NCBI GenBank assembly: GCA_902385655.1
Contig: CABMGO010000005.1
Coordinates: forward strand, 99,584-163,583
Length of the DNA: 64,000 nucleotides
Source: an uncultured archaeon
GTDB lineage: Archaea > Nanobdellota > Nanobdellia > Pacearchaeales > GW2011-AR1
Direction: 5' to 3'
Made by a program: the position numbers and the translations under genes. Within the stretch, counting starts at the first letter, position 1. Each line of letters starts with the position of its first letter. Shown here one piece after another: positions 8,397 through 56,147 of the stretch. The notes beneath the pieces are model-generated. The model was not told where the DNA came from. It made no database searches and saw only the letters and a program-made list of their open reading frames with translations.

Positions 8397-8807
8397 ATGT
8401 ATAAATTCTTAGAACACACCGCAGATGTTAAATTTATAGCCGAAGGCAACTCTCTTGAAGAAGCATTCCTCGAAGCATCAAAAGCACTAAAAGAAGCAAT
8501 CTGCGGAGACATTAAAGTCTTAGAGCAACAAACAAAAGAAATAGAAATCGAAGGAGACAATCTTGAAAGCCTTTTGTATAACTTCCTCGAAGAGTTTATT
8601 GTCCTATTAGAGTCAGAAGATTTTCTAATTTCAAAAATAACAGAAATAAAAATTGATCAAAAAAATTTCATATTAAAAGCAAAAGTTTCGGGAGACAAGA
8701 TAGATAATTACAAATTTACAAATGATGTCAAAGCCGTTACATACAACGAAATGTTCGTAAAAAACGAAAAAGGAAAGTGGAGACTCCAAGTCGTTTTAGA
8801 TGTATAA
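8397..8807 (+). CDS. Archease (RtcB activator)
   Basis: N-terminal FLEHTADVKF signature; ~136 aa. Confidence 0.8.
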   Translation: MYKFLEHTADVKFIAEGNSLEEAFLEASKALKEAICGDIKVLEQQTKEIEIEGDNLESLLYNFLEEFIVLLESEDFLISKITEIKIDQKNFILKAKVSGDKIDNYKFTNDVKAVTYNEMFVKNEKGKWRLQVVLDV

Positions 8808-8808
8808 A

Positions 8809-10527
8809 ATGAAAAGAAATAAAAGAGGACAAGCATTAACGATCACACTAATAATCCTAATAATTGTTTTAATCAGTGGAGTTGTTTTACTATATATTAA
8901 TCCCAATAAACAAACAACAGAAAAATGTAATGTAGGTGGAAAAATAGATCCAAAAACGGGAAAATGTGCTTATCTAACTACAAAAGAAGACATAACACTT
9001 CCTCCAAAAACACCAATAAAGGAAAATAATACAAAAATTAATCCTAGAGTAAATATCACAAACCAAACAGCAATAAATTATACTAATTTTAATATTTCAG
9101 AATATGAAGACAATCCTTTTGGTTGGCATCCGGCTTATCCATATGCTAGCGCCTTTGATCTAGGCATTAGATGGCATAGAGATAATCTTATTTGGTCTTT
9201 AGTCCAGCCAGATATCAATAAGGAAGAGTATCAGTTTAAATTTGTGGACGGAGGTAAAAAGGGTAATTTTAACTATGATCAGAACTTTGGCGTTGAAACT
9301 GGAAATTTAAAAAAGATAATAACTATTTTCATTGAGAAAAATTCTCGGACCCCTACAAATTCTTGGGTACCAACTAACATAACAGCCTACCAAAAATATC
9401 TCCAAGTTTTAGTTGAAAGATATGACGGAGACGATAATTTAGGTTGCAAGATCGCTGCTCCAGATTGCTATTCGACTGGAGACAATATGTATCCAAGCCA
9501 AGAAGTTATTGATGGTCTGAAGAAAAACCCAATTAAATATTGGCAGGTAGAAAATGAACCAATTTCACTCAATAAAAAACTTGAAGGTTCAGACCCATCA
9601 AGTGATTTAACTTTTGCTCAGCTACAACGTTTGTCTTATGAAGCAATAAAAACTGCTGATCCTGCAGCTAAAGTCTTACTTGGTAGTACTTCAGGTGGAC
9701 CGGACGGATACATTTCTCAAACCTTAGACCCATGGCAACCAATATTGCAAACATTAGATGGAAAATACGCCGACATTTTTGATCTGCACTGGTATGGTTG
9801 TGCTAAAGGAGATTATCAAATATTAGATACAAGCAATGGACAAGATGTTTTGTCCTACCTAAGAGCAGAGCTTACCGAAACAGGTTTTCCTAATTTACCC
9901 ATTTGGATGACAGAAATGGGAACCAACTCCGGCCTAGCAACTGATGCTAATTGTGGATTACAAACAGAAGAACAACAAGCAAGTGATTATGTAAAGAGAT
10001 ACATTTATGGTTTATCTCACGGAATAAAAAAAATGTTTGGAATCTTAAGTCTTACAGAAGGAACATGGGACAACCCAGAAGATTACTTTAGCAAGACAGA
10101 ACTGATTTATGACGGAGAGGGTTCAAATGACCTCGGTGAAGGTGTTAAAAAACTATCTTATTATTCATACAAGTTAATGACTAATAAACTAGAAGGTTCT
10201 GATTGGAAAAATGTTTTAGAAATTTATAACTCGAGTAATGTTTACGCCTACAAATTCACAAATAAACAAACAGGAAACTTAACTTACATTGTTTGGTGGG
10301 ATTATTGGAATGAGCCAGAGTTAACAACTAAACAAGTAACTATCCCAATTTCTTTAAATGGCAACGTAAAAATAACTCAGGCTGTTCCCCATTTTGAAAA
10401 TGGGTTAATTCTTCAACAAAGCGGAGAAGACTATCCAAATTTTTTTGATACTGAGACTAAACAAGCGAGTAATGGGCAATTAAGTTTGAGTTTACTCAAA
10501 AATCCAGTTTATATAGAACAAGATTAA
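8809..10527 (+). CDS. Clan GH-A (TIM-barrel) glycoside hydrolase with a pilin-like class III N-terminal signal or anchor
   Basis: N-terminus MKRNKRGQ|ALTITLIILI; WQVENEP (acid/base NEP) and IWMTEMG (nucleophile E) motifs; an ORF-track start 9 nt upstream is also possible. Confidence 0.5.
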   Translation: MKRNKRGQALTITLIILIIVLISGVVLLYINPNKQTTEKCNVGGKIDPKTGKCAYLTTKEDITLPPKTPIKENNTKINPRVNITNQTAINYTNFNISEYEDNPFGWHPAYPYASAFDLGIRWHRDNLIWSLVQPDINKEEYQFKFVDGGKKGNFNYDQNFGVETGNLKKIITIFIEKNSRTPTNSWVPTNITAYQKYLQVLVERYDGDDNLGCKIAAPDCYSTGDNMYPSQEVIDGLKKNPIKYWQVENEPISLNKKLEGSDPSSDLTFAQLQRLSYEAIKTADPAAKVLLGSTSGGPDGYISQTLDPWQPILQTLDGKYADIFDLHWYGCAKGDYQILDTSNGQDVLSYLRAELTETGFPNLPIWMTEMGTNSGLATDANCGLQTEEQQASDYVKRYIYGLSHGIKKMFGILSLTEGTWDNPEDYFSKTELIYDGEGSNDLGEGVKKLSYYSYKLMTNKLEGSDWKNVLEIYNSSNVYAYKFTNKQTGNLTYIVWWDYWNEPELTTKQVTIPISLNGNVKITQAVPHFENGLILQQSGEDYPNFFDTETKQASNGQLSLSLLKNPVYIEQD

Positions 10528-10583
10528 AAAAGGCAAAGCAATCCTCTCGTTAAGTCTATAAACTATTTTTGAGTAAATTAATT

Positions 10584-11999
10584 ATGGCAGAAATAAAAAA
10601 AATATCAGAAGTTGAATGGGAGATCCCTAAAGAAAATGAAATGCTAGTACCTGGAAAAGTATTTGCATCAGAAAAACTATTTAAAAAAATAAAAGAAGAT
10701 AAAACTTTACAACAAGTAAAAAATGTAGCTATGCTTCCAGGAATCATCAAAGCAAGCTTTGCAATGCCAGATGCACACCAAGGTTATGGATTTCCAATAG
10801 GAGGGGTTGCAGCATTTGACATTGAAAAAGGAGTAATCTCGCCAGGAGGAGTAGGATATGACATAAACTGTTCAGTAAGATTATTAAGAACAAATCTAAC
10901 AAAAGACCAGATAAAAGGAAAAGAAAAAATTCTAACAAAAGCATTATTCAAAGCAGTTCCAGTCGGAGTTGGTGGAAAAGGAAAATTAAAAATAACTCCC
11001 AAAGAATTAAACGAAATTTTAGAAAAAGGAGCAGAATGGTGCAAAGAAAAAGGTTACGCAACAAAAGAAGACATTGAATTCATCGAAGAAAAGGGATGCA
11101 TAAAAGGAGCAAACTCGAGAAATGTTTCTGACAAGGCAAGAGGAAGAGGAATAAATCAGCTAGGAACTTTGGGAGCAGGAAATCATTTTGTTGAAATGCA
11201 AGTTGTAAATGAAATATTTGATAAGAAAACTGCAGAGATATTTGGATTAAAAAAAGATCAAATAACAATTATGGTTCACTGTGGTTCGAGAGGTTTGGGG
11301 CATCAAGTCGCATCAGATTATATTAAACTAATGGAAAAAGAATATGGCTTTCCAAAACAAGATAGAGAATTGGTTAACGCTCCAATCAAATCAGATCTAG
11401 GAAAAAAATATCTTTCAGCAATGGCAGCTGCAGCTAATTTTGCATTTGCAAATAAACAAATCTTAACACATCAAATCAGAGAAGAATTTAAAAAAATATT
11501 TCCAAAATTTGAAGCAGAACTAGTTTATGATATTTGTCACAACATTGCAAAATTCGAGAAACATGAAATCGATGGTAAAGAGAAAGAAGTTTTGATTATG
11601 AGAAAAGGAGCAACAAGATCATTTGGTCCTGGAAGAAAAGAGCTTCCAAAAGATTATCAGAAAACAGGTCAGCCAATAATTCTGCCAGGATCAATGGGAA
11701 CTTCAAGCTATGTTTTAGTTGGAACAGAACAAGCAGAAAAAGTTTCATTTGCTTCCACAGCACATGGAGCAGGCAGAGTCTCAAGCAGAAGTTTTGCAAC
11801 AAAGAATATAGACTCGAATCAAGTCTTAGAAAAATTAAAAGAAAGAGGAATAGAAGTAGAAGTAGGAAGTCAAAAAGGACTAGTTGAAGAAGCTCCAGAA
11901 GTTTACAAAGACATTGACGAAGTTGCAGAAGTTTCTCAAAAAGCAGGAATCGGAAATTTGGTTGTAAAACTAAGACCTATTGGAGTAGTGAAGGGATAA
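10584..11999 (+). CDS. rtcB: RNA-splicing ligase RtcB
   Basis: Conserved RtcB motifs (GYDINCSVR, GAGNHF, HCGSRG, STAHGAGR); start moved to the first ATG (ORF-track start is TTG). Confidence 0.9.
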   Translation: MAEIKKISEVEWEIPKENEMLVPGKVFASEKLFKKIKEDKTLQQVKNVAMLPGIIKASFAMPDAHQGYGFPIGGVAAFDIEKGVISPGGVGYDINCSVRLLRTNLTKDQIKGKEKILTKALFKAVPVGVGGKGKLKITPKELNEILEKGAEWCKEKGYATKEDIEFIEEKGCIKGANSRNVSDKARGRGINQLGTLGAGNHFVEMQVVNEIFDKKTAEIFGLKKDQITIMVHCGSRGLGHQVASDYIKLMEKEYGFPKQDRELVNAPIKSDLGKKYLSAMAAAANFAFANKQILTHQIREEFKKIFPKFEAELVYDICHNIAKFEKHEIDGKEKEVLIMRKGATRSFGPGRKELPKDYQKTGQPIILPGSMGTSSYVLVGTEQAEKVSFASTAHGAGRVSSRSFATKNIDSNQVLEKLKERGIEVEVGSQKGLVEEAPEVYKDIDEVAEVSQKAGIGNLVVKLRPIGVVKG

Positions 12000-23756: not shown

Positions 23757-24014
23757 TGCAAACCCCGGGGTTCGCGCAACATCACAAAAAAGAGGTCACA
23801 AATCGTCCTCAGTCTTGCTACCCTTTAAGCATCTAAACTATAACTTAGGGTTGCTCCGATCAAGGCCTCACCCGATTCACCATAGAGAGATCGAAAAGGA
23901 CAAAACCTCAACGTCAGATAAATGACATTTTGTGGTCAGTCTTACTCTCCCCATCGGCCCGCCATGAAGTCCGTTTGCGGAATGCACGGGACTAGCGTGC
24001 TGCCAGGTTTGCAA
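23757..24014. ncRNA. GC-rich (~50% vs ~30% background) candidate structured RNA of ~260 nt closed by a terminal helix TGCAAACC/GGTTTGCA; identity undetermined (SRP RNA or RNase P RNA are candidates)
   Basis: Compositional island in an intergenic gap; internal hairpins (ACCCUUUAAG...CUUAGGGU; GUCC...GGAC); TATA-like and T-rich flanks on either strand. Confidence 0.4.
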
Positions 24015-24087
24015 ATATAAGAGTTTTCGAAGAGTTTTAAGTGTTTCGGTTAGGTAAATATTTAAACAAACTTCCCTAACAAAACCC

Positions 24088-25023
24088 ATGAATAAAATAA
24101 TAAATTTTATACTCACAATAATCTTACTAGGTGCACTCGCTTACGTCGGATATACAATATATCAGTATCTTCCAGCAGAAAAACAAATTCTTAACATTCA
24201 AACAGAAGCTAAACTTCCAGAAGTAAATGCGTCTTCAACAGTTACTCAATTTGTTCCAAACATGAGATTTGCAAAAAGCGACTTGAGTTATTTTTTCTAT
24301 CCTGGCTGCAGTCAAGACAAAGAAACAAGAATGAAGGAAGCATTTAGCACTATTTCATCACAGACAGGAATAATAACTTTCACAGAAAAAACAACTTTAC
24401 AAGAAGCAGACATAAAAATATTCTGCTCAGAAGTTCAAAAGGAAGTAAAACCAAATCAGTTCATTGCAGGAGAGGGCGGGCCAGATGAATTCCTTAACCT
24501 AAGTTTATATCCATTAATAGTTTCTGGAGAAATTTATCTTTACGATACTCTCTACAGGGACAAGTGCGACTATCCCCTCGTAGAATTACATGAACTCTTA
24601 CATGTATTTGGATTTGACCACGTAAATAAAAAAAGTTCAGTTCTTTATCCTTACTATTCATGTGGACAACAACTAGATTCTTCAATTGTAAACGAGTTAA
24701 TAAGAATTTATTCAATAACGCCAAAAGCAGAATTACATTTTGTAAACGCTAGCGCATCCAAACATGGCATTTATCTAGATTTCAAAACGCCAGTAGAAAA
24801 TCGAGGTTTAATAGAAGCAGAAAATGTAACAATTGTTTTATACTCGCAAGGAAAAGAAATAGCTAATTTTGACATGGGAAATATCTCTCCGGGAACGACA
24901 AAGAGCATAACTATTCAAAACCAAATTCTTCCTTCAAGATCAACTTCCGAGATAGAGTTCAGTACAATTTCAAATACTCAAGAATATTTTTCAGAAGACA
25001 ACCAAATTAGCGCAAAATTGTAA
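24088..25023 (+). CDS. Membrane-anchored metzincin-type zinc metallopeptidase
   Basis: HELLHVFGFDH (HExxHxxGxxH) motif; N-terminal TM anchor. Confidence 0.55.
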   Translation: MNKIINFILTIILLGALAYVGYTIYQYLPAEKQILNIQTEAKLPEVNASSTVTQFVPNMRFAKSDLSYFFYPGCSQDKETRMKEAFSTISSQTGIITFTEKTTLQEADIKIFCSEVQKEVKPNQFIAGEGGPDEFLNLSLYPLIVSGEIYLYDTLYRDKCDYPLVELHELLHVFGFDHVNKKSSVLYPYYSCGQQLDSSIVNELIRIYSITPKAELHFVNASASKHGIYLDFKTPVENRGLIEAENVTIVLYSQGKEIANFDMGNISPGTTKSITIQNQILPSRSTSEIEFSTISNTQEYFSEDNQISAKL

Positions 25024-25066
25024 AATAACAATCTTTTTAATACATCAAATCAACCTAATTTCATAA

Positions 25067-25149
25067 GCCGACATCGCATAGTGGTATTGCATCAGGTTGC
25101 TAACCTGAGCCCTTTACTGGGCCCCAGGGTTCGATTCCCTGTGTCGGCG
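25067..25149 (+). tRNA. tRNA-Ser (anticodon GCU), long variable arm, no encoded CCA
   Basis: Manual fold: acceptor GCCGACA/TGTCGGC, anticodon stem TCAGG/CCTGA with loop TTGCTAA, variable hairpin GCCC..GGGC, T-arm CAGGG-TTCGATT-CCCTG. Confidence 0.85.
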
Positions 25150-25560
25150 TTGAATAGATTGAGCAAAGTGAAATCTATTGAAATCTGATTCTGGAATCGA
25201 ACCTAGGTTCGTATTCCCTGAAAAAATTTCGCTCTTGAGAAATATTTGCGTTAGCAACTAAAGTTGAGAAAAGTACAAGAGCAAAATTTTTTGTGTCGGC
25301 GTTTATGCTATCGAAGAATGAGATAGCAATTATTCTACATGGAATTGAACCCTGGGTTCGACGAATAAAACGCTCCGAGAAAATATTTCTGTCAACTAAA
25401 TTTATTTTCGAGGTACATTTTGTGAGCCTCCCTGTGTCGGCGTTTTTTCTGGCTTCACAAACGTTTCTAAAAATGAAGAGCAGAAAAAACGAAGTCGAGA
25501 TGTGTTTTTTGAAAAAGGTTGCTAACCTGAGCCCTTTACTGGGAATGAAGCGCCTTGATT
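25150..25560 (+). repeat. Tandem degenerate ~145-155-bp repeats; two units end in a 12-15-nt copy of the tRNA-Ser 3' end, and one carries a 28-nt exact copy of the anticodon-stem/variable-arm segment
   Basis: CCCTGTGTCGGCGTT at 25137 and 25434; TGTGTCGGCGTT at 25294; AGGTTGCTAACCTGAGCCCTTTACTGGG at 25095 and 25517; unit-internal hairpin GGAATYGAACC..GGTTCG. Confidence 0.6.
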
Positions 25561-25616
25561 TCGATTACAAAAAACTTTCTGAAAAAGCTTATAAATAACA
25601 AAAACAAATAGTTACT

Positions 25617-26171
25617 ATGGAAGAAAAAGAGGATCTAAAAGAAGAGGATATTGAAAAATTAAAGCAAGCAAATATTAGTCTAATAATTGATACTTACGAT
25701 GATATTTTCTCAGACTTCGATCCAAGAGACTTTAACCAGCGAGCTCTTTCCGACGACTTTTTGATAGAATGTAAAAAAGCAGCAAGAGATAAACTAAGCG
25801 GAATAGAGTTAAGAATAATGGTTCCAAAATCAATAAGAAATTTTAAAGATGAGTCCAAAATAAAAAAAAGACTTTTAGATCATTTCAAACATCATTATTC
25901 TTTGGAAGAAAAACAAATAAGAAAAATAGTTTGGGAAGGAATTTCTTGGTTCGGACTTGGAACAATATTTATTTTAAGTGACTCATGGCTAAAAACATTA
26001 AGCATTAACAATTTTGGTTTAACAATTTTGTCAACAATATTAGAACCAGCAGGATGGTTTTCATTCTGGGAAGGATTAGGAAAAGTTTTCATAACAGCAA
26101 AGGAAAAATCAGAAAATTATGAATTCTACAAAAAGATGTCTGATGTAGAAATAAACTTTTTAGAATATTAA
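25617..26171 (+). CDS. Hypothetical protein with C-terminal TM segments
   Basis: ORF; hydrophobic segments. Confidence 0.4.
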   Translation: MEEKEDLKEEDIEKLKQANISLIIDTYDDIFSDFDPRDFNQRALSDDFLIECKKAARDKLSGIELRIMVPKSIRNFKDESKIKKRLLDHFKHHYSLEEKQIRKIVWEGISWFGLGTIFILSDSWLKTLSINNFGLTILSTILEPAGWFSFWEGLGKVFITAKEKSENYEFYKKMSDVEINFLEY

Positions 26172-27040
26172 ACTTTTGAAAGTTTCTTTAGTCTATTTTC
26201 TAAAACAGGCAAACTAGAATTAATTTTTTGAAGCCTCTCATGATACGAACTTGTTCTAACGTTATAAGTTAAAGCAGATATCTTATTCTCTTTAAATCGA
26301 TCAGTTTGTGCCTTTTTAATAAGTTCAGAAAGTGTGCTTTTCTCAGAATGTAATTTTCTAACTGTCATCCTCAAAAATCTAATTCTTAATTTAACATAAA
26401 CAAAATAAGTAAAGAAAATTAATATAACAATAAAAATAGTTATCTGTATCCAGTATCGATAAAAAAAGTTTCTCGCCTGTAATGCCAAACTTTTGAAAAT
26501 AGAATTATTTCCATATTCAGAATCATAAGAAGTTCTAAAACTCTCTAAATAGGTTTGAGACTCATTTAGCCTACCATTATAAAAAGAATCTCGCGCCAAT
26601 AAAAAGTAGTTAGAAGTTTCATTAGAAATAGGATCAGATAATTTTTTTTGCTCAAGATTTAACAGATCATACAAATCCAAAGTTTGCGAGCGAATATCTG
26701 AAACTCGGTTTGTCAAAGCAACGACATCTGAATACTGCAAATTCTTCCAATTTATAAACTGAAGTGCACTTCTTGCATCAATTCTTTCTTGCAAACTAGA
26801 ATTAACTTCTCCACGCAAAATTTGAGCATAAAGAACTTGTATGTAAACATTCTTCGCCTCGACAATTGTATCATTGATATCTGAGTAAGGCAAACTAAGA
26901 TTGATAAACTCATTCAAAATTTTTTCACTATTATTTATTGCGATCAATGCATCTTGAGCAGAATATGTCTGATTTGCTTCCGCCGCTAAAACAAAACTTC
27001 CAAAAAATAAAAATAGCGATAATAAAATTAACTTTTTCAC
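26168..27040 (-). CDS. Secreted or anchored coiled-coil protein (signal peptide, C-terminal TM anchor preceded by FFYRYW, short cytoplasmic tail); GTG start, GTGA-coupled to the giant gene
   Basis: N-terminal signal MKKLILLSLFLFFGSFVLAAEA; C-terminal TM; overlap aaGTGAaa. Confidence 0.5.
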   Translation of the reverse strand: MKKLILLSLFLFFGSFVLAAEANQTYSAQDALIAINNSEKILNEFINLSLPYSDINDTIVEAKNVYIQVLYAQILRGEVNSSLQERIDARSALQFINWKNLQYSDVVALTNRVSDIRSQTLDLYDLLNLEQKKLSDPISNETSNYFLLARDSFYNGRLNESQTYLESFRTSYDSEYGNNSIFKSLALQARNFFYRYWIQITIFIVILIFFTYFVYVKLRIRFLRMTVRKLHSEKSTLSELIKKAQTDRFKENKISALTYNVRTSSYHERLQKINSSLPVLENRLKKLSKV

Positions 27041-34254: not shown

Positions 34255-34450
34255 TAAGGCTGAACAAAAACGCTTCGAACAAAATTGACTCTGTTCATTA
34301 TATTTTTTGTGAAATGCATTTTTGTGAATTAAAAATGCGGAGCATTGACTGCCGCTAACGGTGAACAAAACGCTTTGAGTAAAACAAATTTCTTTTTCAT
34401 TGGTACGAAATGCATTTTGTGAGTTCTTTTTCGATCGAGCCAACAGCTCG
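34255..34450. repeat. Imperfect ~65-bp direct repeat (GAACAAAA(A)CGCTTYGA...TGTGAAATGCATTTT...) in the upstream region of the giant gene
   Basis: Two copies aligned by eye. Confidence 0.45.
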
Positions 34451-34596
34451 AAATCATTCGAAAAACGCCCTAGACAATTTTCAGTAGTTTTCATCATCCT
34501 CTTTTTATAATTATATACTGTAAAACAACTATTTAAAGCTTTCTTTACAGTATTATAGTATTATGAAATATTTTAATACCATAAATCTAAGAATAA

Positions 34597-49826: not shown

Positions 49827-49937
49827 TAACCATTAAACAAAATAACAAATATAAACCTTTCTCCCAAAAATTAAAGATAAAAATATAAAGTAAAATTCCT
49901 AAATTGTGTCAAGAAGAAAAAGTTTATTGACAAACTA

Positions 49938-50025
49938 AACGGATAACTTTAGAAAATAGGGGCGGGCTTTTCTGCGTAGCAGAAAAATTGGGGAGATACT
50001 CAATAAACTTTTTCGACCAAATAAG
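49938..50025. repeat. Structured element family S, copy 3 (compact)
   Basis: GGATAACTTTAGAAAATAGGGGCGGGC-[TTTTCTGC-GTA-GCAGAAAA]-ATTGGGGAGATA...TTTTTCGACCAAA. Confidence 0.5.
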
Positions 50026-53225: not shown

Positions 53226-56147
53226 ATGGGATACGAACAATTCGCTTTGAAGAACAAAACAAAAAAAACAGAGAAATCTGAAATGCAAATTGCGAGCCAA
53301 AAACCGAAAACAATAACTGAATTAGAAGAAGAAATAGTTGAATTCTGGGAAAAAGACAAAACCTTTGAGAAATCTCTAAAGCAAAATGAGAAATCCGAAC
53401 CGTTTGTATTCTATGATGGACCTCCATTTGCAACAGGCTTACCTCATTATGGTCATTTACTAGCATCAATCGAGAAAGACGTAATTCCAAGGTTCTGGAC
53501 AATGCGAGGAAAATATATTAGACGAGTTTGGGGCTGGGATTGCCACGGACTCCCTATAGAAAATATCGCAGAAAGAGAACTTGGAATAAACTCAAAAGAC
53601 GAAATAGAAAAAATGGGCGTTGAAAAATTCAACAAATTCTGCAGAAGCAAAGTTATGTCCTATGCATCAGACTGGGAAAAAGTAATCAAAAGAATAGGCA
53701 GATGGGTCGACATGAAAAATGCGTATAAAACAATGGACAATGAATATATCGAAACAGTCTGGTGGATCTTTAAACAAATGTGGGAAAAAGGTTTAATCTA
53801 TGAGGGAGAAAAAATCTTAATGTATTGTCCAAGATGCTCCACTCCATTAGCGAAATCTGAAATTGCAATGGAAGACTCGTATAAAAAAGTAAAAGATGAA
53901 ACTCTAACAATAAAATTCAAATTAAAAAATGAAAATGCATATGCTCTTGCATGGACAACAACTCCCTGGACATTGCCTGCAAATTTAGCGCTAACAGTAA
54001 ACCCCAACCTAGATTACTCCTACTTAAAAGACAAATCCGACGGAACAGTTTATATCTTAGCAACAGCACTTATCGGAAAATTTTTCAAATCTGAAGACCA
54101 ATATGAATTAATAAAAACAATAAAGGGAGAAGAACTCGAAGGCAAAAAATACGAACCGCTCTTCCCTTATTTCTCAAATTTCTCAAATTCATTCAGAATA
54201 GTATTAGGAGATTTTGTAACAGCAGAAGATGGAACAGGAATTGTTCATACTGCTCCGGCATTTGGTGAAGACGACTATTATGTATGCAAAGCAAATGGAA
54301 TCGATTTTGTTAGCCCAGTAAACGAAATAGGAAGATTTGACAAAACAGTAACAGATTTTGCAGGCCAATATATCTTCGATGCAAATAAAGAAATAATAAT
54401 TTTCCTAAAGAAACAAGGAAAAGTTGTAAAAATAGAAAAGAAAGAACATGACTACCCATTCTGCCACAGATGCGATACCCCTCTATTCTACAAATCTCTT
54501 CCAGCAGTATTCGTTAACATACAAAAGATAAAACAAAATCTTCTGGCATCAAATAAAACAGTTAACTGGAATCCAGAGTTCTTAAAAGAAGGCAGAGTTA
54601 AGTACACATTTGAAACAGCACCAGACTGGAATCTTTCACGAAATAGATACTGGGCAGCATCAATACCAATTTGGAAATCAAAAAGTGGAAAAACAAAAGT
54701 TATTGGAAGCATAGAAGAATTGAAAAAGTATGCAACCAAGTTACCTAAAGAAAAAATTGATCTCCACAAAGATTTCGTCGACAAAATAAAATTAAAAGAT
54801 GAATCTGGAGAAGAGATGACAAGAATACCGGACGTATTTGACTGCTGGTTCGAATCTGGAAGCATGCCATACGCACAATTCCATTATCCATTTGAAAATA
54901 AAGAATTATTTGAAAAAAATTATCCAGCAGATTTTATTGCAGAAGGATTAGACCAAACTCGAGGATGGTTCTATACTCTCCAAGTTATCGGCACAGCGTT
55001 ATTCAATAAATCTCCTTTCAAAAATGTATTAGTTAATGGATTAATTTTAGCAGAAGACGGAAAAAAGATGTCAAAAAAACTAAAGAATTATCCAGACCCA
55101 AGTTATTTAATTGATAAATATGGAGTTGATGCACTGAGATGCTACTTGTTAGGATCAAGTGTAATGAACGCAGACAACTTCAACTTTTCAGAAAAAGGAG
55201 TAGAGGAAGTCTACAAGAAAGTTCTAATGCTTCTTTATAACGTAAATAATTTTTACAAACTTTATGCTGGAAAAGAAAAAAGTAATCCAAATTCAAAAAA
55301 TGTCATCGACAAATGGATAATTTCAAGAGTGCACAGTTTGATACATATAGTTCAAGATTCATTAGAAAAATATGACACAATAACTACTGCAAATGAAATC
55401 AAGATATTTGTAGAAGATCTTTCTACATGGTACGTCAGAAGATGTAGAGAAAGATTTAATGAAAATGATCTACAAGCAAAAGAAACATTAAAGTATATTT
55501 TAGAAAATTTTGTCAAAGTCTCCGCACCATTAATGCCTTTTTCTTCTGAAATAATTTGGAAAGAATTAGGAAATAAAAAATCAGTACATCTAGAGAGTTG
55601 GCCAAAATACGAATATAAATTATTCAATAAAGAATTAGAAGAGGATATGAAAAAAGTAAGAGAAATTGTTTCCATTGCATTAAGAGAAAGAGACATCCAA
55701 AAAATGCCATTGAAACAGCCATTATTGAAATTAACTATTTCGGGTTATGAAATCCCTACAGAATATCACATGATAATCGAAGAAGAACTCAACGTAAAAG
55801 AGTTAGAATTCAAAAAATCTGAAGAAAAGAAACTAGAATTGGACTTAACCATCACTCCAGAACTTGAAGCAGAGGGATTCGCAAGAGAATTAACAAGACT
55901 AGTACAAGCTGCAAGAAAAAAAGCAGGCCTGGTAAAAGAAGATTTGATTGAGTTAGTTCTAGAATTTGAACATAAAAATAAGAAATTAGTAGAAAAATAT
56001 GTTACTGAAGAGCAAAAAAGAATTGGTGCAAAAAATATACAATTTGAACATAAAAATAAGTCTCAAAAATTTGACTACTCCGAGGAGGCTAAAATAAAAG
56101 AGATTTCCTACAAGCTCCTTTTTAGCAAAACCTCGTCGAGAAAATAA
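53226..56147 (+). CDS. ileS: Isoleucyl-tRNA synthetase
   Basis: PPFATGLPHYGHLL (HIGH), WDCHGLPIE, KMSKKLKN (KMSKS), editing and anticodon-binding regions. Confidence 0.95.
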   Translation: MGYEQFALKNKTKKTEKSEMQIASQKPKTITELEEEIVEFWEKDKTFEKSLKQNEKSEPFVFYDGPPFATGLPHYGHLLASIEKDVIPRFWTMRGKYIRRVWGWDCHGLPIENIAERELGINSKDEIEKMGVEKFNKFCRSKVMSYASDWEKVIKRIGRWVDMKNAYKTMDNEYIETVWWIFKQMWEKGLIYEGEKILMYCPRCSTPLAKSEIAMEDSYKKVKDETLTIKFKLKNENAYALAWTTTPWTLPANLALTVNPNLDYSYLKDKSDGTVYILATALIGKFFKSEDQYELIKTIKGEELEGKKYEPLFPYFSNFSNSFRIVLGDFVTAEDGTGIVHTAPAFGEDDYYVCKANGIDFVSPVNEIGRFDKTVTDFAGQYIFDANKEIIIFLKKQGKVVKIEKKEHDYPFCHRCDTPLFYKSLPAVFVNIQKIKQNLLASNKTVNWNPEFLKEGRVKYTFETAPDWNLSRNRYWAASIPIWKSKSGKTKVIGSIEELKKYATKLPKEKIDLHKDFVDKIKLKDESGEEMTRIPDVFDCWFESGSMPYAQFHYPFENKELFEKNYPADFIAEGLDQTRGWFYTLQVIGTALFNKSPFKNVLVNGLILAEDGKKMSKKLKNYPDPSYLIDKYGVDALRCYLLGSSVMNADNFNFSEKGVEEVYKKVLMLLYNVNNFYKLYAGKEKSNPNSKNVIDKWIISRVHSLIHIVQDSLEKYDTITTANEIKIFVEDLSTWYVRRCRERFNENDLQAKETLKYILENFVKVSAPLMPFSSEIIWKELGNKKSVHLESWPKYEYKLFNKELEEDMKKVREIVSIALRERDIQKMPLKQPLLKLTISGYEIPTEYHMIIEEELNVKELEFKKSEEKKLELDLTITPELEAEGFARELTRLVQAARKKAGLVKEDLIELVLEFEHKNKKLVEKYVTEEQKRIGAKNIQFEHKNKSQKFDYSEEAKIKEISYKLLFSKTSSRK

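Follow-up and report, generated by a model that had tools for sequence, protein, structure and literature searches.

The closest described systems are elements integrated in tRNA genes. In the Islander procedure such an island is recognized from an intact tRNA gene (tDNA) and a cognate fragment in the same orientation, a 3′ fragment lying downstream, with an integrase gene between the two and an interval of 2–200 kb (PMC4383910); tandem arrays of such islands and proviruses are also described (PMC4383910, PMC9897764). The displaced fragments are end fragments, and the junction of the T stem and the acceptor stem is a recognized crossover subsite in tRNA genes (PMC4383910). Partial tRNA genes arising from element integration are common in archaea (PMC9897764). 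For the archaeal integrase of the pleolipovirus SNJ2 the core measures 14 bp and lies at the tRNA-Met 3′ end (PMC5861418). Casposons are also found at tRNA 3′ ends, where they form tandem copies with a shared target-site duplication between them, or leave solo-TIR remnants (PMC4779613).

The locus described here lies in a 64,000-nucleotide stretch of DNA from a DPANN archaeon (the window), in which about 470 bp of non-coding DNA separates tRNA-Ser(GCU) from a conserved 184-aa gene (25617–26171; 762 homologues). The tRNA gene had been read as intact, and ARAGORN and Rfam agreed, with one call each at 25067–25149 on the + strand (Rfam tRNA model matched over its full length, 58.1 bits). Orthologues occupy the same locus in the related genomes L003, L005 and L194. 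A TATA-like box (TTTTTAATA, 25034–25042, +), read from the sequence and kept in L003, L005, L188, L189 and L191, is probably the promoter of the tRNA gene; because it lies about 26 nt 5′ of base 1 of the mature tRNA, the transcript would be nearly leaderless. The right-hand limit of the variable stretch is the TATA box of the 184-aa gene (TTATAAAT, 25589–25596, +), the motif of which (..GAAAAAGCTTATAAAT..) is kept in L001, L003, L005 and L195.

Downstream of the gene the tRNA 3′ end recurs, as the original prediction had claimed, and the matches are exact. The 12-nt sequence TGTGTCGGCGTT has exactly three exact matches in 64 kb (25140, 25292 and 25433, all on the + strand), with no match of any kind in 100 of 100 shuffles, and the 16-nt sequence TCCCTGTGTCGGCGTT is exact at 25136 and 25429. 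The reference copy (O1, 25136–25151, +) consists of the end of the T stem, the 3′ acceptor strand, the discriminator and TT. It is followed by a 12-nt copy (O2, 25292–25303, +) and a 16-nt copy (O3, 25429–25444, +), with start-to-start spacings of 152 and 141 nt. Runs of six T residues (T6) are present at 25287–25292 and 25443–25448; O3 leads into such a run, which is comparable to the native T5 trailer of L194, a relative that has no units.

Same-strand 3′ end copies stacked downstream of one tDNA are what tDNA islands and proviruses leave (PMC4383910, PMC9897764), and further likenesses are a left edge at the T-stem/acceptor subsite, copies identical to the resident gene and a hypervariable locus. 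Both O2 and O3 reach the discriminator and TT, as end fragments do. The locus nevertheless does not qualify formally as a tDNA-integrated island: the intervals are non-coding and hold neither integrase nor cargo, at 141–152 bp they compare with at least 2 kb for islands, and one of the fragments here is internal. Each interval also contains an inverted T-arm. The repeated core of 12–16 nt and its 3′-distal position in the tRNA resemble those used by SNJ2-type integrases (PMC5861418), but the SNJ2-type elements are viruses of many kilobases with int and accessory genes beside attP, none of which was detected here.

The DNA between the 3′ end copies is made up of two units. Unit A (152 nt, 25152–25303, +) comprises a hairpin (H1), a palindrome of inverted and direct T-arm copies, a fold-back repeat (X) and O2. 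Its H1 is an inverted repeat with the arms TTGAATAGATT and AATCTATTGAA (25150–25182, +). In the T-arm palindrome (25193–25220, +), delimited by inverted and direct repeat matches, an inverted T-loop copy (GGAATCGAACC, 25193–25203; 11/11 complementary to 25128–25138) abuts a degenerate direct T-arm copy (CCTAGGTTCGTATTCCCTG, 25202–25220). Unit B (141 nt, 25304–25444, +) has the same architecture in a more decayed form. H1 (TGCTATC … GATAGCA) is at 25306–25328 (+), and the T-arm copies are at 25337–25361 (+), where an inverted copy (ACATGGAATTGAACCCTGGG, 25337–25356) that matches the reverse complement of 25123–25142 at 18 of 20 positions overlaps a direct copy (CCCTGGGTTCGA, 25350–25361). Both palindromes are centred on CCCWGGG. 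The motif GGAATYGAACC at 25193 and 25341 (+) is the reverse complement of the T loop of the tRNA itself; the hairpin previously noted as common to the units is in fact an inverted T-arm copy lying against a direct one. The H1 stems covary across unit A, unit B and the unit of L003, with both sides changed in five of seven pairs. K-turn, C/D-box and H/ACA motifs were considered for H1 and X and rejected by eye, the boxes being incomplete.

Units A and B share 59% identity, with a local alignment z score of 6.7 that was reached by none of 300 shuffles; judged by this alignment they are homologous, though old. The predicted degenerate tandem array of ∼150-bp repeats is not seen by TRF, which reports no array in 24000–27000, and on both counts (59% identity and no TRF array) a tRNA-derived satellite is a weak candidate. 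Decayed tandem copies of the full-length tRNA were rejected, as there is no similarity to the 5′ acceptor strand or the D arm and the inverted T-loop copy is exact over 11 nt. Beyond unit B, spacer C (25445–25515, +) consists of a hairpin followed by AT-rich sequence; the hairpin is a perfect one of 11 bp (25441–25451 paired with 25481–25491). Spacer C could represent a third unit, or an X copy, in an advanced state of decay, although the similarity is not significant: it is weakly like the L003 unit (z = 3.5) and has no similarity to L001:132–292 (z = 1.6).

The casposons (PMC4779613) share with this locus a 3′-distal tRNA target, reuse of the site that gives arrays split only by the repeated target, and gene-less remnants that outnumber full elements. 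In contrast to casposons, the units lack terminal inverted repeats at their ends, of the casposon or the MITE kind (aligning a unit to its own reverse complement returned the central T-arm palindrome only), the repeats have two lengths, 12 and 16 nt, in place of a fixed one, and the window encodes neither Cas1 nor PolB. A casposon remnant of the form TSD–TIR–TSD was rejected, as neither terminal repeats nor a target duplication of a fixed 14–15 bp was found.

The block GCTCYKGAGAAAATATTT…AACTAAA (GCTCYKGAG…AACTAAA), previously described as shared by the units, is present in both. It belongs to a larger set, however: it is part of X, an independent dispersed fold-back repeat of about 70 nt, of which six copies were found in the window, four of them outside the two units, and three in relatives (nhmmer E values of 1e-7 to 1e-14). 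In unit A, X is 72 nt long (25221–25292, +; AAAAAATTTCGC…AACTAAAGTT…GCAAAATTTTTT; nhmmer and fold), with 17-nt arms that are 94% complementary. It splits a tRNA-derived piece between CCCTG and TGTCGGCG, and deleting it together with one copy of a duplicated TG restores ..CCCTGTGTCGGCGTT. In unit B (25362–25428, +; nhmmer 25360–25430, E = 5.9e-14 and 6.6e-10) the split is between TTCGA and TCCCTG. With X taken out, the tRNA-derived pieces of the two units read CCTAGGTTCGTATTCCCTG+TGTCGGCGTT and CCCTGGGTTCGA+TCCCTGTGTCGGCGTT, each 28–29 nt, and in unit A the left edge of identity is at the T-stem/acceptor junction. The insertion point of X within these pieces differs among unit A, unit B and L003.

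Away from the locus, a copy at about 921–995 (+, E = 1e-11) has the termini and the 72-nt length of the copy in unit A. Two copies in tandem (34259–34330 and 34359–34425, +; E = 5e-14 and 2.5e-14) are separated by a GC-richer hairpin spacer, and another (53233–53298, +, E = 1.8e-7) overlaps the start annotated for an ORF whose Pfam domains are those of a class-I tRNA synthetase. Every copy folds back, all are in one orientation, and a mismatch conserved in every copy gives a G·T/G·U wobble on one strand. Small dispersed palindromic repeats include REP/BIME sequences, IS200/IS605-derived PATEs, MITEs and the Rickettsia palindromic elements. Like these, X is multi-copy, dispersed, short and self-complementary, and is found in spacers and at one gene start. 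It differs in that no transposase (Y1 HUH or other) was seen in the 64 kb, no conserved flanking motif or target-site duplication was found, and only six copies are present in 64 kb. X, although it makes up much of each unit, covers it in part only and does not account for the tRNA-derived repeats.

A further tRNA-derived patch lies beyond spacer C, where the 28-nt sequence AGGTTGCTAACCTGAGCCCTTTACTGGG, covering the anticodon stem-loop and the variable arm, is copied exactly at 25516–25543 (+; the original starts at 25094). A repeat of this length is not expected by chance, and it stretches to 35 nt at 91% identity from 25509. The copy itself is as originally predicted; its interpretation as a displaced att fragment is not supported, as it is an internal piece of the tRNA with sharp edges and with flanks that have no similarity to the remainder of the tRNA. 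An analogous 13-nt anticodon-arm copy is found at 218–230 of L001, immediately 3′ of an X repeat. Since an X-type arm adjoins the 3′ end copy in L003 and the anticodon-arm copy in L001, the specificity of a single integrase is not an explanation.

Split, tri-split and permuted tRNA genes are known in the archaea Nanoarchaeum, Caldivirga and Thermofilum, and the pieces seen here (T arm plus acceptor strand; anticodon arm plus variable arm) recall them in being separate DNA pieces of a tRNA in a DPANN archaeon whose window encodes the RtcB ligase and archease. The downstream pieces could be alternative 3′ halves or middle pieces that archaeal splicing joins to a 5′ piece, in a tRNA that is split, permuted or interrupted by several introns. 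We regard this as very improbable. The gene upstream already makes up a complete tRNA with a normal score, each piece would repeat sequence that this gene encodes, and no additional 5′ piece exists in the 64 kb. Searches with ARAGORN (options -i and -i0,400) that allowed introns of up to 400 nt returned the intact gene only at default stringency, and spurious calls only at 70% stringency; Rfam likewise found one tRNA. The inserts pair perfectly to their very ends, and neither a bulge-helix-bulge at the junctions nor complementary leader sequences were found.

The same locus was compared in related genomes, as the original prediction had suggested, and the number of units is zero, one or at least two. 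The window has two. With relatives ordered by the identity of the neighbouring protein, L001 (86%) has at least one unit, of the A type, L003 (76%) has one, and none is present in L005 (69%) or L194 (67%), the two unit-less relatives in which the tRNA is visible. The units are thus known from three independent genomes only, and the L001 contig does not include its own tRNA; contigs of close relatives that are anchored upstream end just 5′ of the tRNA, and neither they nor L195 supplied a new unit. An insertion in L191 sits 5′ of the tRNA promoter. It was rejected as kin of the units, the common part being a 12-nt terminal motif only. The stretch from the tRNA to the 184-aa gene differs in every relative examined, between flanking promoters that are conserved. 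The gap is occupied by small genes that vary from genome to genome; as these have no Pfam match and a single weak PHROG match of unknown function (a 60-aa protein of L194), they do not identify a mobile element.

The 3′ end copies carry the variant of the resident gene: in the window the junction reads ..CCCTG|TGTCGGCGTT, and in L003 ..CCG|TGTCGGCGT. The L003 unit has CCGTGTCGGCGT, as does its own tRNA, where the T stem carries C in place of T. At an overall identity of only 59%, units A and B have O copies that are exact at 12 of 12 and 16 of 16 positions, and the L003 copy equals its own tRNA; the repeat is therefore reset against the resident gene and the rest drifts. Such tracking predicts that the tRNA-Ser of L001 has the anticodon arm GGATTGCTAATCC and discriminator A. 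With L001:11–131, unit A shares 88% identity, compared with 67% at the third codon positions of the adjacent gene, and the differences are concentrated in the loops (nine in 43 columns) rather than the stems (one in 57). Stems that are nearly unchanged beside loops that differ suggest hairpins that were retained or have recently spread, as expected for the ends of an element.

A purely local origin, with no mobile element, would account for part of this. Replication errors at the T-arm palindrome (fold-back or template-switch duplication, slippage and unequal crossing-over) would copy the 3′ part of the tRNA both directly and inverted; these duplicates would decay, and short-patch gene conversion from the live tRNA would hold small cores while the edges erode. 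Palindromes of inverted and direct T-arm copies centred on CCCWGGG would follow, as would sharp identical cores within diverged flanks, including the internal 28-nt block. An integrase and cargo would not be required, and none was seen, nor was a homologous unit found elsewhere in the collections scanned. The scheme nevertheless needs efficient conversion of tracts of 12–28 nt. It leaves unexplained both the close match of unit A to L001, with its stems spared, between genomes with neutral sites at ∼67%, and the clean differences in unit content and number beside conserved flanking promoters. We consider it somewhat unlikely.

Alternatively, the units could be functional RNAs co-transcribed with the tRNA, in which three hairpins end in a mimic of the acceptor strand that is cut by tRNA 3′ processing (RNase Z), with the anticodon/variable-arm copy serving as a protein-binding mimic. 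The three-hairpin architecture is seen in unit A, in L003 and weakly in unit B, and the folds of unit A (z = −3.9 on the + strand and −4.3 on the − strand) and L003 beat shuffles with z scores of about −3 to −4. The covariation of H1 and the conserved stems and variable loops between the window and L001 also fit this proposal. In addition, pairing is possible in unit A and L003 between CUGAU, 5′ of the palindrome, and GUCGG in the 3′ end copy, and archaeal transcription would terminate at the T6 run in which the X repeat of unit A ends. Unit B, however, folds no better than shuffles (z = −0.7 on the + strand and −1.1 on the − strand), its closing stem, weak elsewhere, is missing, and a long stem takes up the T-loop sequence, so that no T arm is formed. 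Rfam gave no match for the units or X even at permissive E values. The largest hairpin is a dispersed repeat that also occurs in unrelated spacers, and the conserved mismatch of X pairs on the opposite strand only. Finally, relatives at 67–69% protein identity do without the units, which argues against a conserved cellular role. Functional RNAs of this kind are, in our estimation, quite improbable.

The stretch has no coding potential. A 101-aa ORF (25293–25598) might be taken for a real small protein, as it is an open frame with a GTG start, and such a gene would have contradicted the original prediction. It is almost certainly not one: it has no homologue in 1.84 billion representative proteins and no Pfam or PHROG match, the DNA of L001 and L003 differs here and does not preserve its frame, and it crosses the tRNA-derived repeats and an X repeat. 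The prediction that integrase and cargo are lacking was upheld: the window has 53 ORFs of 130 aa or more, and in the 51 covered no recombinase domain and no integrase, transposase or cargo gene was found. A scan of a genome collection for GGAATYGAACC-N(70–95)-GTGTCGGC was swamped by chance hits in GC-rich bacteria and was uninformative, with no DPANN locus among the at least 120 matches listed. All 60 matches of a metagenome scan for GTGTCGGCG-N(30–55)-TGGAATYGAACC were due to chance, four viral pattern scans gave nothing apart from one chance match inside a coding sequence, and BLAST against phages and plasmids gave no match. A full-length element, a further unit or a P-O-P′ (attP) junction on a free or integrated element was likewise not found in the viral, phage, plasmid and metagenome collections scanned, where absence is not proof. 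A scan for σ70 promoters and terminators was uninformative, the host being an archaeon.

Our tentative preference is to read the ∼470 bp as non-coding debris at a recombination hot spot, in which att-type displaced tRNA fragments, left by the serial site-specific insertion of gene-less mini-units, were subsequently invaded by X. A recombinase with its gene elsewhere, either of the tyrosine-integrase type or a transposase that duplicates its target, would repeatedly insert small DNA at the T-stem/acceptor-stem junction, acting in trans as a site-specific enzyme. Each insertion would rebuild the tRNA 3′ end and push the former 3′ end downstream, giving the direct repeats O1, O2 and O3, identical to the resident tRNA. 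The remnants between the repeats would be gene-less units of ∼140–150 bp, with H1 and an inverted T-arm beside the displaced direct T-arm, and the dead tRNA pieces would then have been invaded at differing positions by the ∼70-nt X copies, the order of these events being the one we infer. The 28-nt anticodon/variable-arm copy would be kept identical by the same recombination or by short-patch gene conversion. The array probably has no cellular function, except perhaps in terminating the tRNA transcript at the T6 runs. The original prediction of scars of repeated integration and excision is borne out in the direct downstream 3′ end copies, their match to the resident variant and the variable locus; it is weakened by the absence of integrase and cargo, the internal 28-nt copy and the inverted T-arms. 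An inverted T-arm in every unit is no product of ordinary att recombination and counts against the reading we prefer, and units of 141–152 bp are far smaller than any known integrative element.

It is conceivable, although we think it rather unlikely, that the units are instead living mini integrative elements. They would be gene-less, consist essentially of an attachment region and three hairpins, and depend for their mobility on a recombinase acting in trans at the tRNA-Ser T-stem/acceptor junction. X would be a set of single-strand-hairpin (REP/PATE-like) elements of this DPANN lineage that favour tRNA-like hairpins, and units and X would jointly form a new class of non-autonomous elements directed at tRNA genes in ultra-small archaea.

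If the preferred reading of recombination debris is true, the locus represents the ordinary phenomenon of a tRNA landing pad in an unusual, stripped-down DPANN form, with att debris and hairpins in place of an element, and the finding by itself opens no long-standing question. It would serve as a warning to annotators that the ORF and the tRNA-like pieces at this locus are not genes, and it would explain why short-read assemblies of relatives break at tRNA-Ser. The X family, with its strict strand bias and conserved wobble, is a potential marker of single-strand transposition in these genomes.

The window has a G+C content of about 33% and is AT-rich with archaeal gene content, encoding archaeal type IV pilus or archaellum-type ATPases, pilin-like proteins, several aminoacyl-tRNA synthetases, a TGT enzyme and RtcB with archease. 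The archease gene adjoins that of the RtcB tRNA-splicing ligase at 8397–11999; tRNA splicing and ligation machinery therefore exists in the source genome. The sole tRNA gene of the 64 kb is an intact tRNA-Ser(GCU) at 25067–25149 on the forward strand (ARAGORN; Rfam 58.1 bits, full length). A TATA-like box about 26 nt upstream of base 1 of the mature tRNA (25034–25067) is kept in every relative whose sequence extends that far, and the distance implies a transcript with nearly no 5′ leader. A shortened archaeal SRP (7S) RNA gene at 23757–24013 (reverse strand) spans the whole Rfam model (64.9 bits, E = 3.6e-14) and was missed by the default Rfam scan because it scores under the gathering score of 96.5; it is syntenic in the related loci L005 (1611–1870, reverse strand) and L194 (2236–2490, reverse strand).

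All sequence claims of the original prediction were borne out, among them a repeated tRNA 3′ end and a 28-nt copy. Three exact occurrences of the 12-mer TGTGTCGGCGTT lie at 25140, 25292 and 25433 (none in 100 shuffles), and two of the 16-mer TCCCTGTGTCGGCGTT at 25136 and 25429; the repeat spacings are 152 and 141 nt. The 28-mer AGGTTGCTAACCTGAGCCCTTTACTGGG of 25094 has an exact second copy at 25516, with 35 nt matching at 91%; it is an internal tRNA piece and the flanks of the copy lack tRNA similarity. The two units that follow the gene, A (25152–25303) and B (25304–25444), are 59% identical and significantly related, and Tandem Repeats Finder did not report the tandem array that had been proposed. 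Each unit opens with a short hairpin (H1) immediately 3′ of the preceding 3′ end copy. Next come CTGATTCT (conserved among unit A and the related loci L001 and L003), a copy of the tRNA T loop or T arm in inverted orientation and a mildly damaged T-arm copy in direct orientation, the two copies together making a palindrome. A long AT-rich fold-back (X) follows, and the unit closes with a copy of the acceptor 3′ strand with the discriminator and TT. The inverted T-loop copy of unit A is the exact 11-mer GGAATCGAACC, and that of the T arm in unit B matches the reverse complement of 25123–25142 at 18 of 20 positions. Pairing in H1 is kept despite differing sequence in A, B and L003, with five of seven pairs changed on both sides. 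Single-strand folding gave z of about −3 to −4 against shuffles, on both strands, for unit A and the L003 unit; unit B folded no better than shuffles.

X is a dispersed repeat. A 72-nt copy at 924–995 has the termini AAAAAATTTCGC...GCAAAATTTTTT, both as in the 72-nt hairpin of unit A (25221–25292). A search with a profile of the unit arms picked up copies at 34259–34330, 34359–34425 and 53233–53298; it also recovered the arms of units A and B themselves and, in relatives, two X copies in L001 and a single one in L003, at E-values between 1e-7 and 1e-14. All copies in the window lie on the forward strand, and every copy carries on that strand a C·A mismatch at the identical stem position, which on the reverse strand becomes a U·G (T·G) wobble in an uninterrupted helix. 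The block GCTCYKGAG...AACTAAA, described in the original prediction as shared by the units, is indeed present, but it is part of X and hence, given the dispersal of X, not specific to tRNA-Ser. With X removed, the tRNA-derived pieces are 28–29 nt long: in unit A CCTAGGTTCGTATTCCCTG then runs into TGTCGGCGTT, in unit B CCCTGGGTTCGA into TCCCTGTGTCGGCGTT and in L003 TTCGATTC into CCGTGTCGGCGTT. X thus interrupts one and the same tRNA-derived segment at a different position in each of the three. X resembles REP, PATE or MITE-type fold-back repeats in being dispersed and strand-biased with a conserved G·T-type mismatch; no cognate transposase, target motif or target duplication could be shown for it. 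At 34259–34470, a tandem pair of X with GC-richer hairpins between and after the copies (GCGGAGCATTGACTGCCGC; TCGAGCCAACAGCTCGA) has a layout similar to the tRNA-Ser array, without tRNA pieces. At 53226–53300, X overlaps the annotated start of a 973-residue class-I tRNA synthetase ORF with a Pfam domain from residue 37; the real start may be the ATG within the conserved GAAATGCA motif of X.

Other repeats were seen in passing. A different fold-back insertion of about 95–175 nt, with terminal inverted repeats GAAAAAATTTTGCAT... and ...ATGCAAAATTTTTT around a GC-rich hairpin, is present in the related locus L191 (996–1169) and in the window (49919–50011; nhmmer E = 5.8e-9); in L191 it lies between a peptidase stop codon and the tRNA promoter, where the window has no insertion. 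The GC-rich direct repeat CATGCAGGCGAGGG occurs twice, about 50 nt apart, at 640–720, a region with no match in Rfam; the spacer around it (620–1100) is otherwise AT-rich with many palindromes.

The next gene downstream of the array (25617–26171) encodes a 184-residue protein identical to VVB80267.1 (`uncultured archaeon'). It has 762 homologues, those named being Pacearchaeota, Woesearchaeota or Nanoarchaeota, which places the source organism among the DPANN archaea. The homologues were used to retrieve the loci of relatives. In L001 (86% identity in this protein) the contig starts within an orthologue of unit A (88% identity), followed by GTGTCGGCAT, a further X copy, a 13-nt anticodon-arm copy GGATTGCTAATCC and a 62-residue gene. 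L003, L002 and L004 (76%) have tRNA-Ser, exactly one unit ending CCGTGTCGGCGT(T) and then a 120-residue gene. L005 (69%) and L194 (67%) have tRNA-Ser and no units, the gap holding two other genes and one other gene, respectively. The promoters of the tRNA and 184-residue protein genes are conserved across relatives, and the intervening stretch is hypervariable. Two observations bear on the mechanism. First, the 3′ end copy follows the resident tRNA variant: the gene reads ..CCCTG|TGTCGGCGTT in the window, as do its copies, and ..CCCCG|TGTCGGCGTC in L003, where the unit ends ..CCG|TGTCGGCGT. The tRNA of L001 is off the contig, and its two tRNA-derived pieces match the L194-type variant (discriminator A; anticodon arm GGATTGCTAATCC). 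Second, unit A is, in a comparison of the window with L001, more conserved than neutral sites: its identity is 88%, third codon positions in the neighbouring gene reach 67%, and the differences avoid the stems, affecting one of 57 stem columns and nine of 43 loop columns. That RNAs of the units are freed from the tRNA trailer by 3′ processing is quite unlikely, since there are relatives without any unit, unit B folds no better than shuffles, and the largest hairpin belongs to a dispersed repeat whose conserved wobble forms its pair on the opposite strand.

Short-read contigs of close relatives stop just before tRNA-Ser or within the first unit (L188–L191 at 3′ ends, L001 and L002 at 5′ ends), which suggests a repeated or heterogeneous locus in those populations. 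In L002, L192 and L193 the 184-residue gene is followed at a distance of 1–5 kb by TyrRS/TrpRS-like, TatD and methylase genes; in the window (26168–48700) and L001 about 21 kb instead separates them, including a 2348-residue surface protein, a KaiC-like ATPase and a PAS histidine kinase.

A 101-residue ORF (25293–25598), had it been real and conserved in relatives, would have refuted the original prediction. A search of 1.84 billion representative proteins gave no homologue of it, it matches neither a Pfam nor a PHROG family, and its frame is absent in L001 and L003; a coding gene is effectively excluded, with next to no probability. Split or permuted tRNA-like genes, also proposed, are very improbable and effectively excluded: ARAGORN (introns up to 400 nt, normal stringency) and Rfam found the intact gene alone, and there is no bulge–helix–bulge because the inserts pair right to their ends. 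Among 51 of the window's 53 ORFs that are 130 residues or longer, no integrase, transposase, Cas1 or other mobile-element domain was found. Scans of viral, phage, plasmid and metagenome collections gave no further unit and no element with these junctions; chance matches among the matches listed made the genome-collection scan uninformative on further units.

We tentatively read the array as the residue of site-specific insertion into a tRNA gene, a reading that is plausible but a little short of probable; the original prediction is partly supported, its hot-spot scars being retained and its split tRNA not. An insertion of this kind restores the tRNA gene and pushes its former end away (PMC4383910), with archaeal examples (PMC9897764), and casposons at tRNA 3′ ends can reuse one site, giving arrays split only by the repeated target and gene-less remnants (PMC4779613). 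Because the downstream copies at 25292–25303 and 25429–25444 are direct and matched to the resident gene, and given these precedents, they and the gene's own 3′ end (25136–25151) may be stacked attachment or target repeats. Each insertion would have rebuilt the tRNA gene and displaced the old 3′ end, the units would be the remainder, or entire extent, of small non-autonomous insertions, and X copies would be later invaders of dead tRNA pieces; the enzyme, event order and trans-mobilization we infer. The core of 12–16 nt, 3′-distal in the tRNA gene, is within range of the 14 bp documented for an archaeal integrase, that of SNJ2 (PMC5861418), and the left edge of identity in unit A is the T-stem/acceptor junction subsite (PMC4383910). 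The locus is like a tRNA integration site in its stacked displaced fragments, and differs from the formal island class in having no integrase, intervals about tenfold too short and one internal fragment, a kind rejected by the formal criteria (PMC4383910).

Insertion does not explain the inverted T-arm of every unit or the 28-nt internal copy with non-tRNA flanks, both of which are well accounted for by local duplication, in which errors by fold-back or template switching at the palindrome of the T arm were followed by short-patch gene conversion; we consider this somewhat unlikely overall. Also unexplained by insertion are the total absence of a full-length element and the neighbour of one X-type arm, which adjoins a 3′ end copy in L003 and an anticodon-arm copy in L001. 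Under the insertion reading, the sparing of hairpin stems between genomes fits sequences needed in mobilization, and a role of the T6 runs in ending the tRNA transcript is possible. A conceivable, though unlikely, reading has the units as active miniature integrative elements and X as a single-strand-hairpin element preferring tRNA-like hairpins in DPANN archaea.
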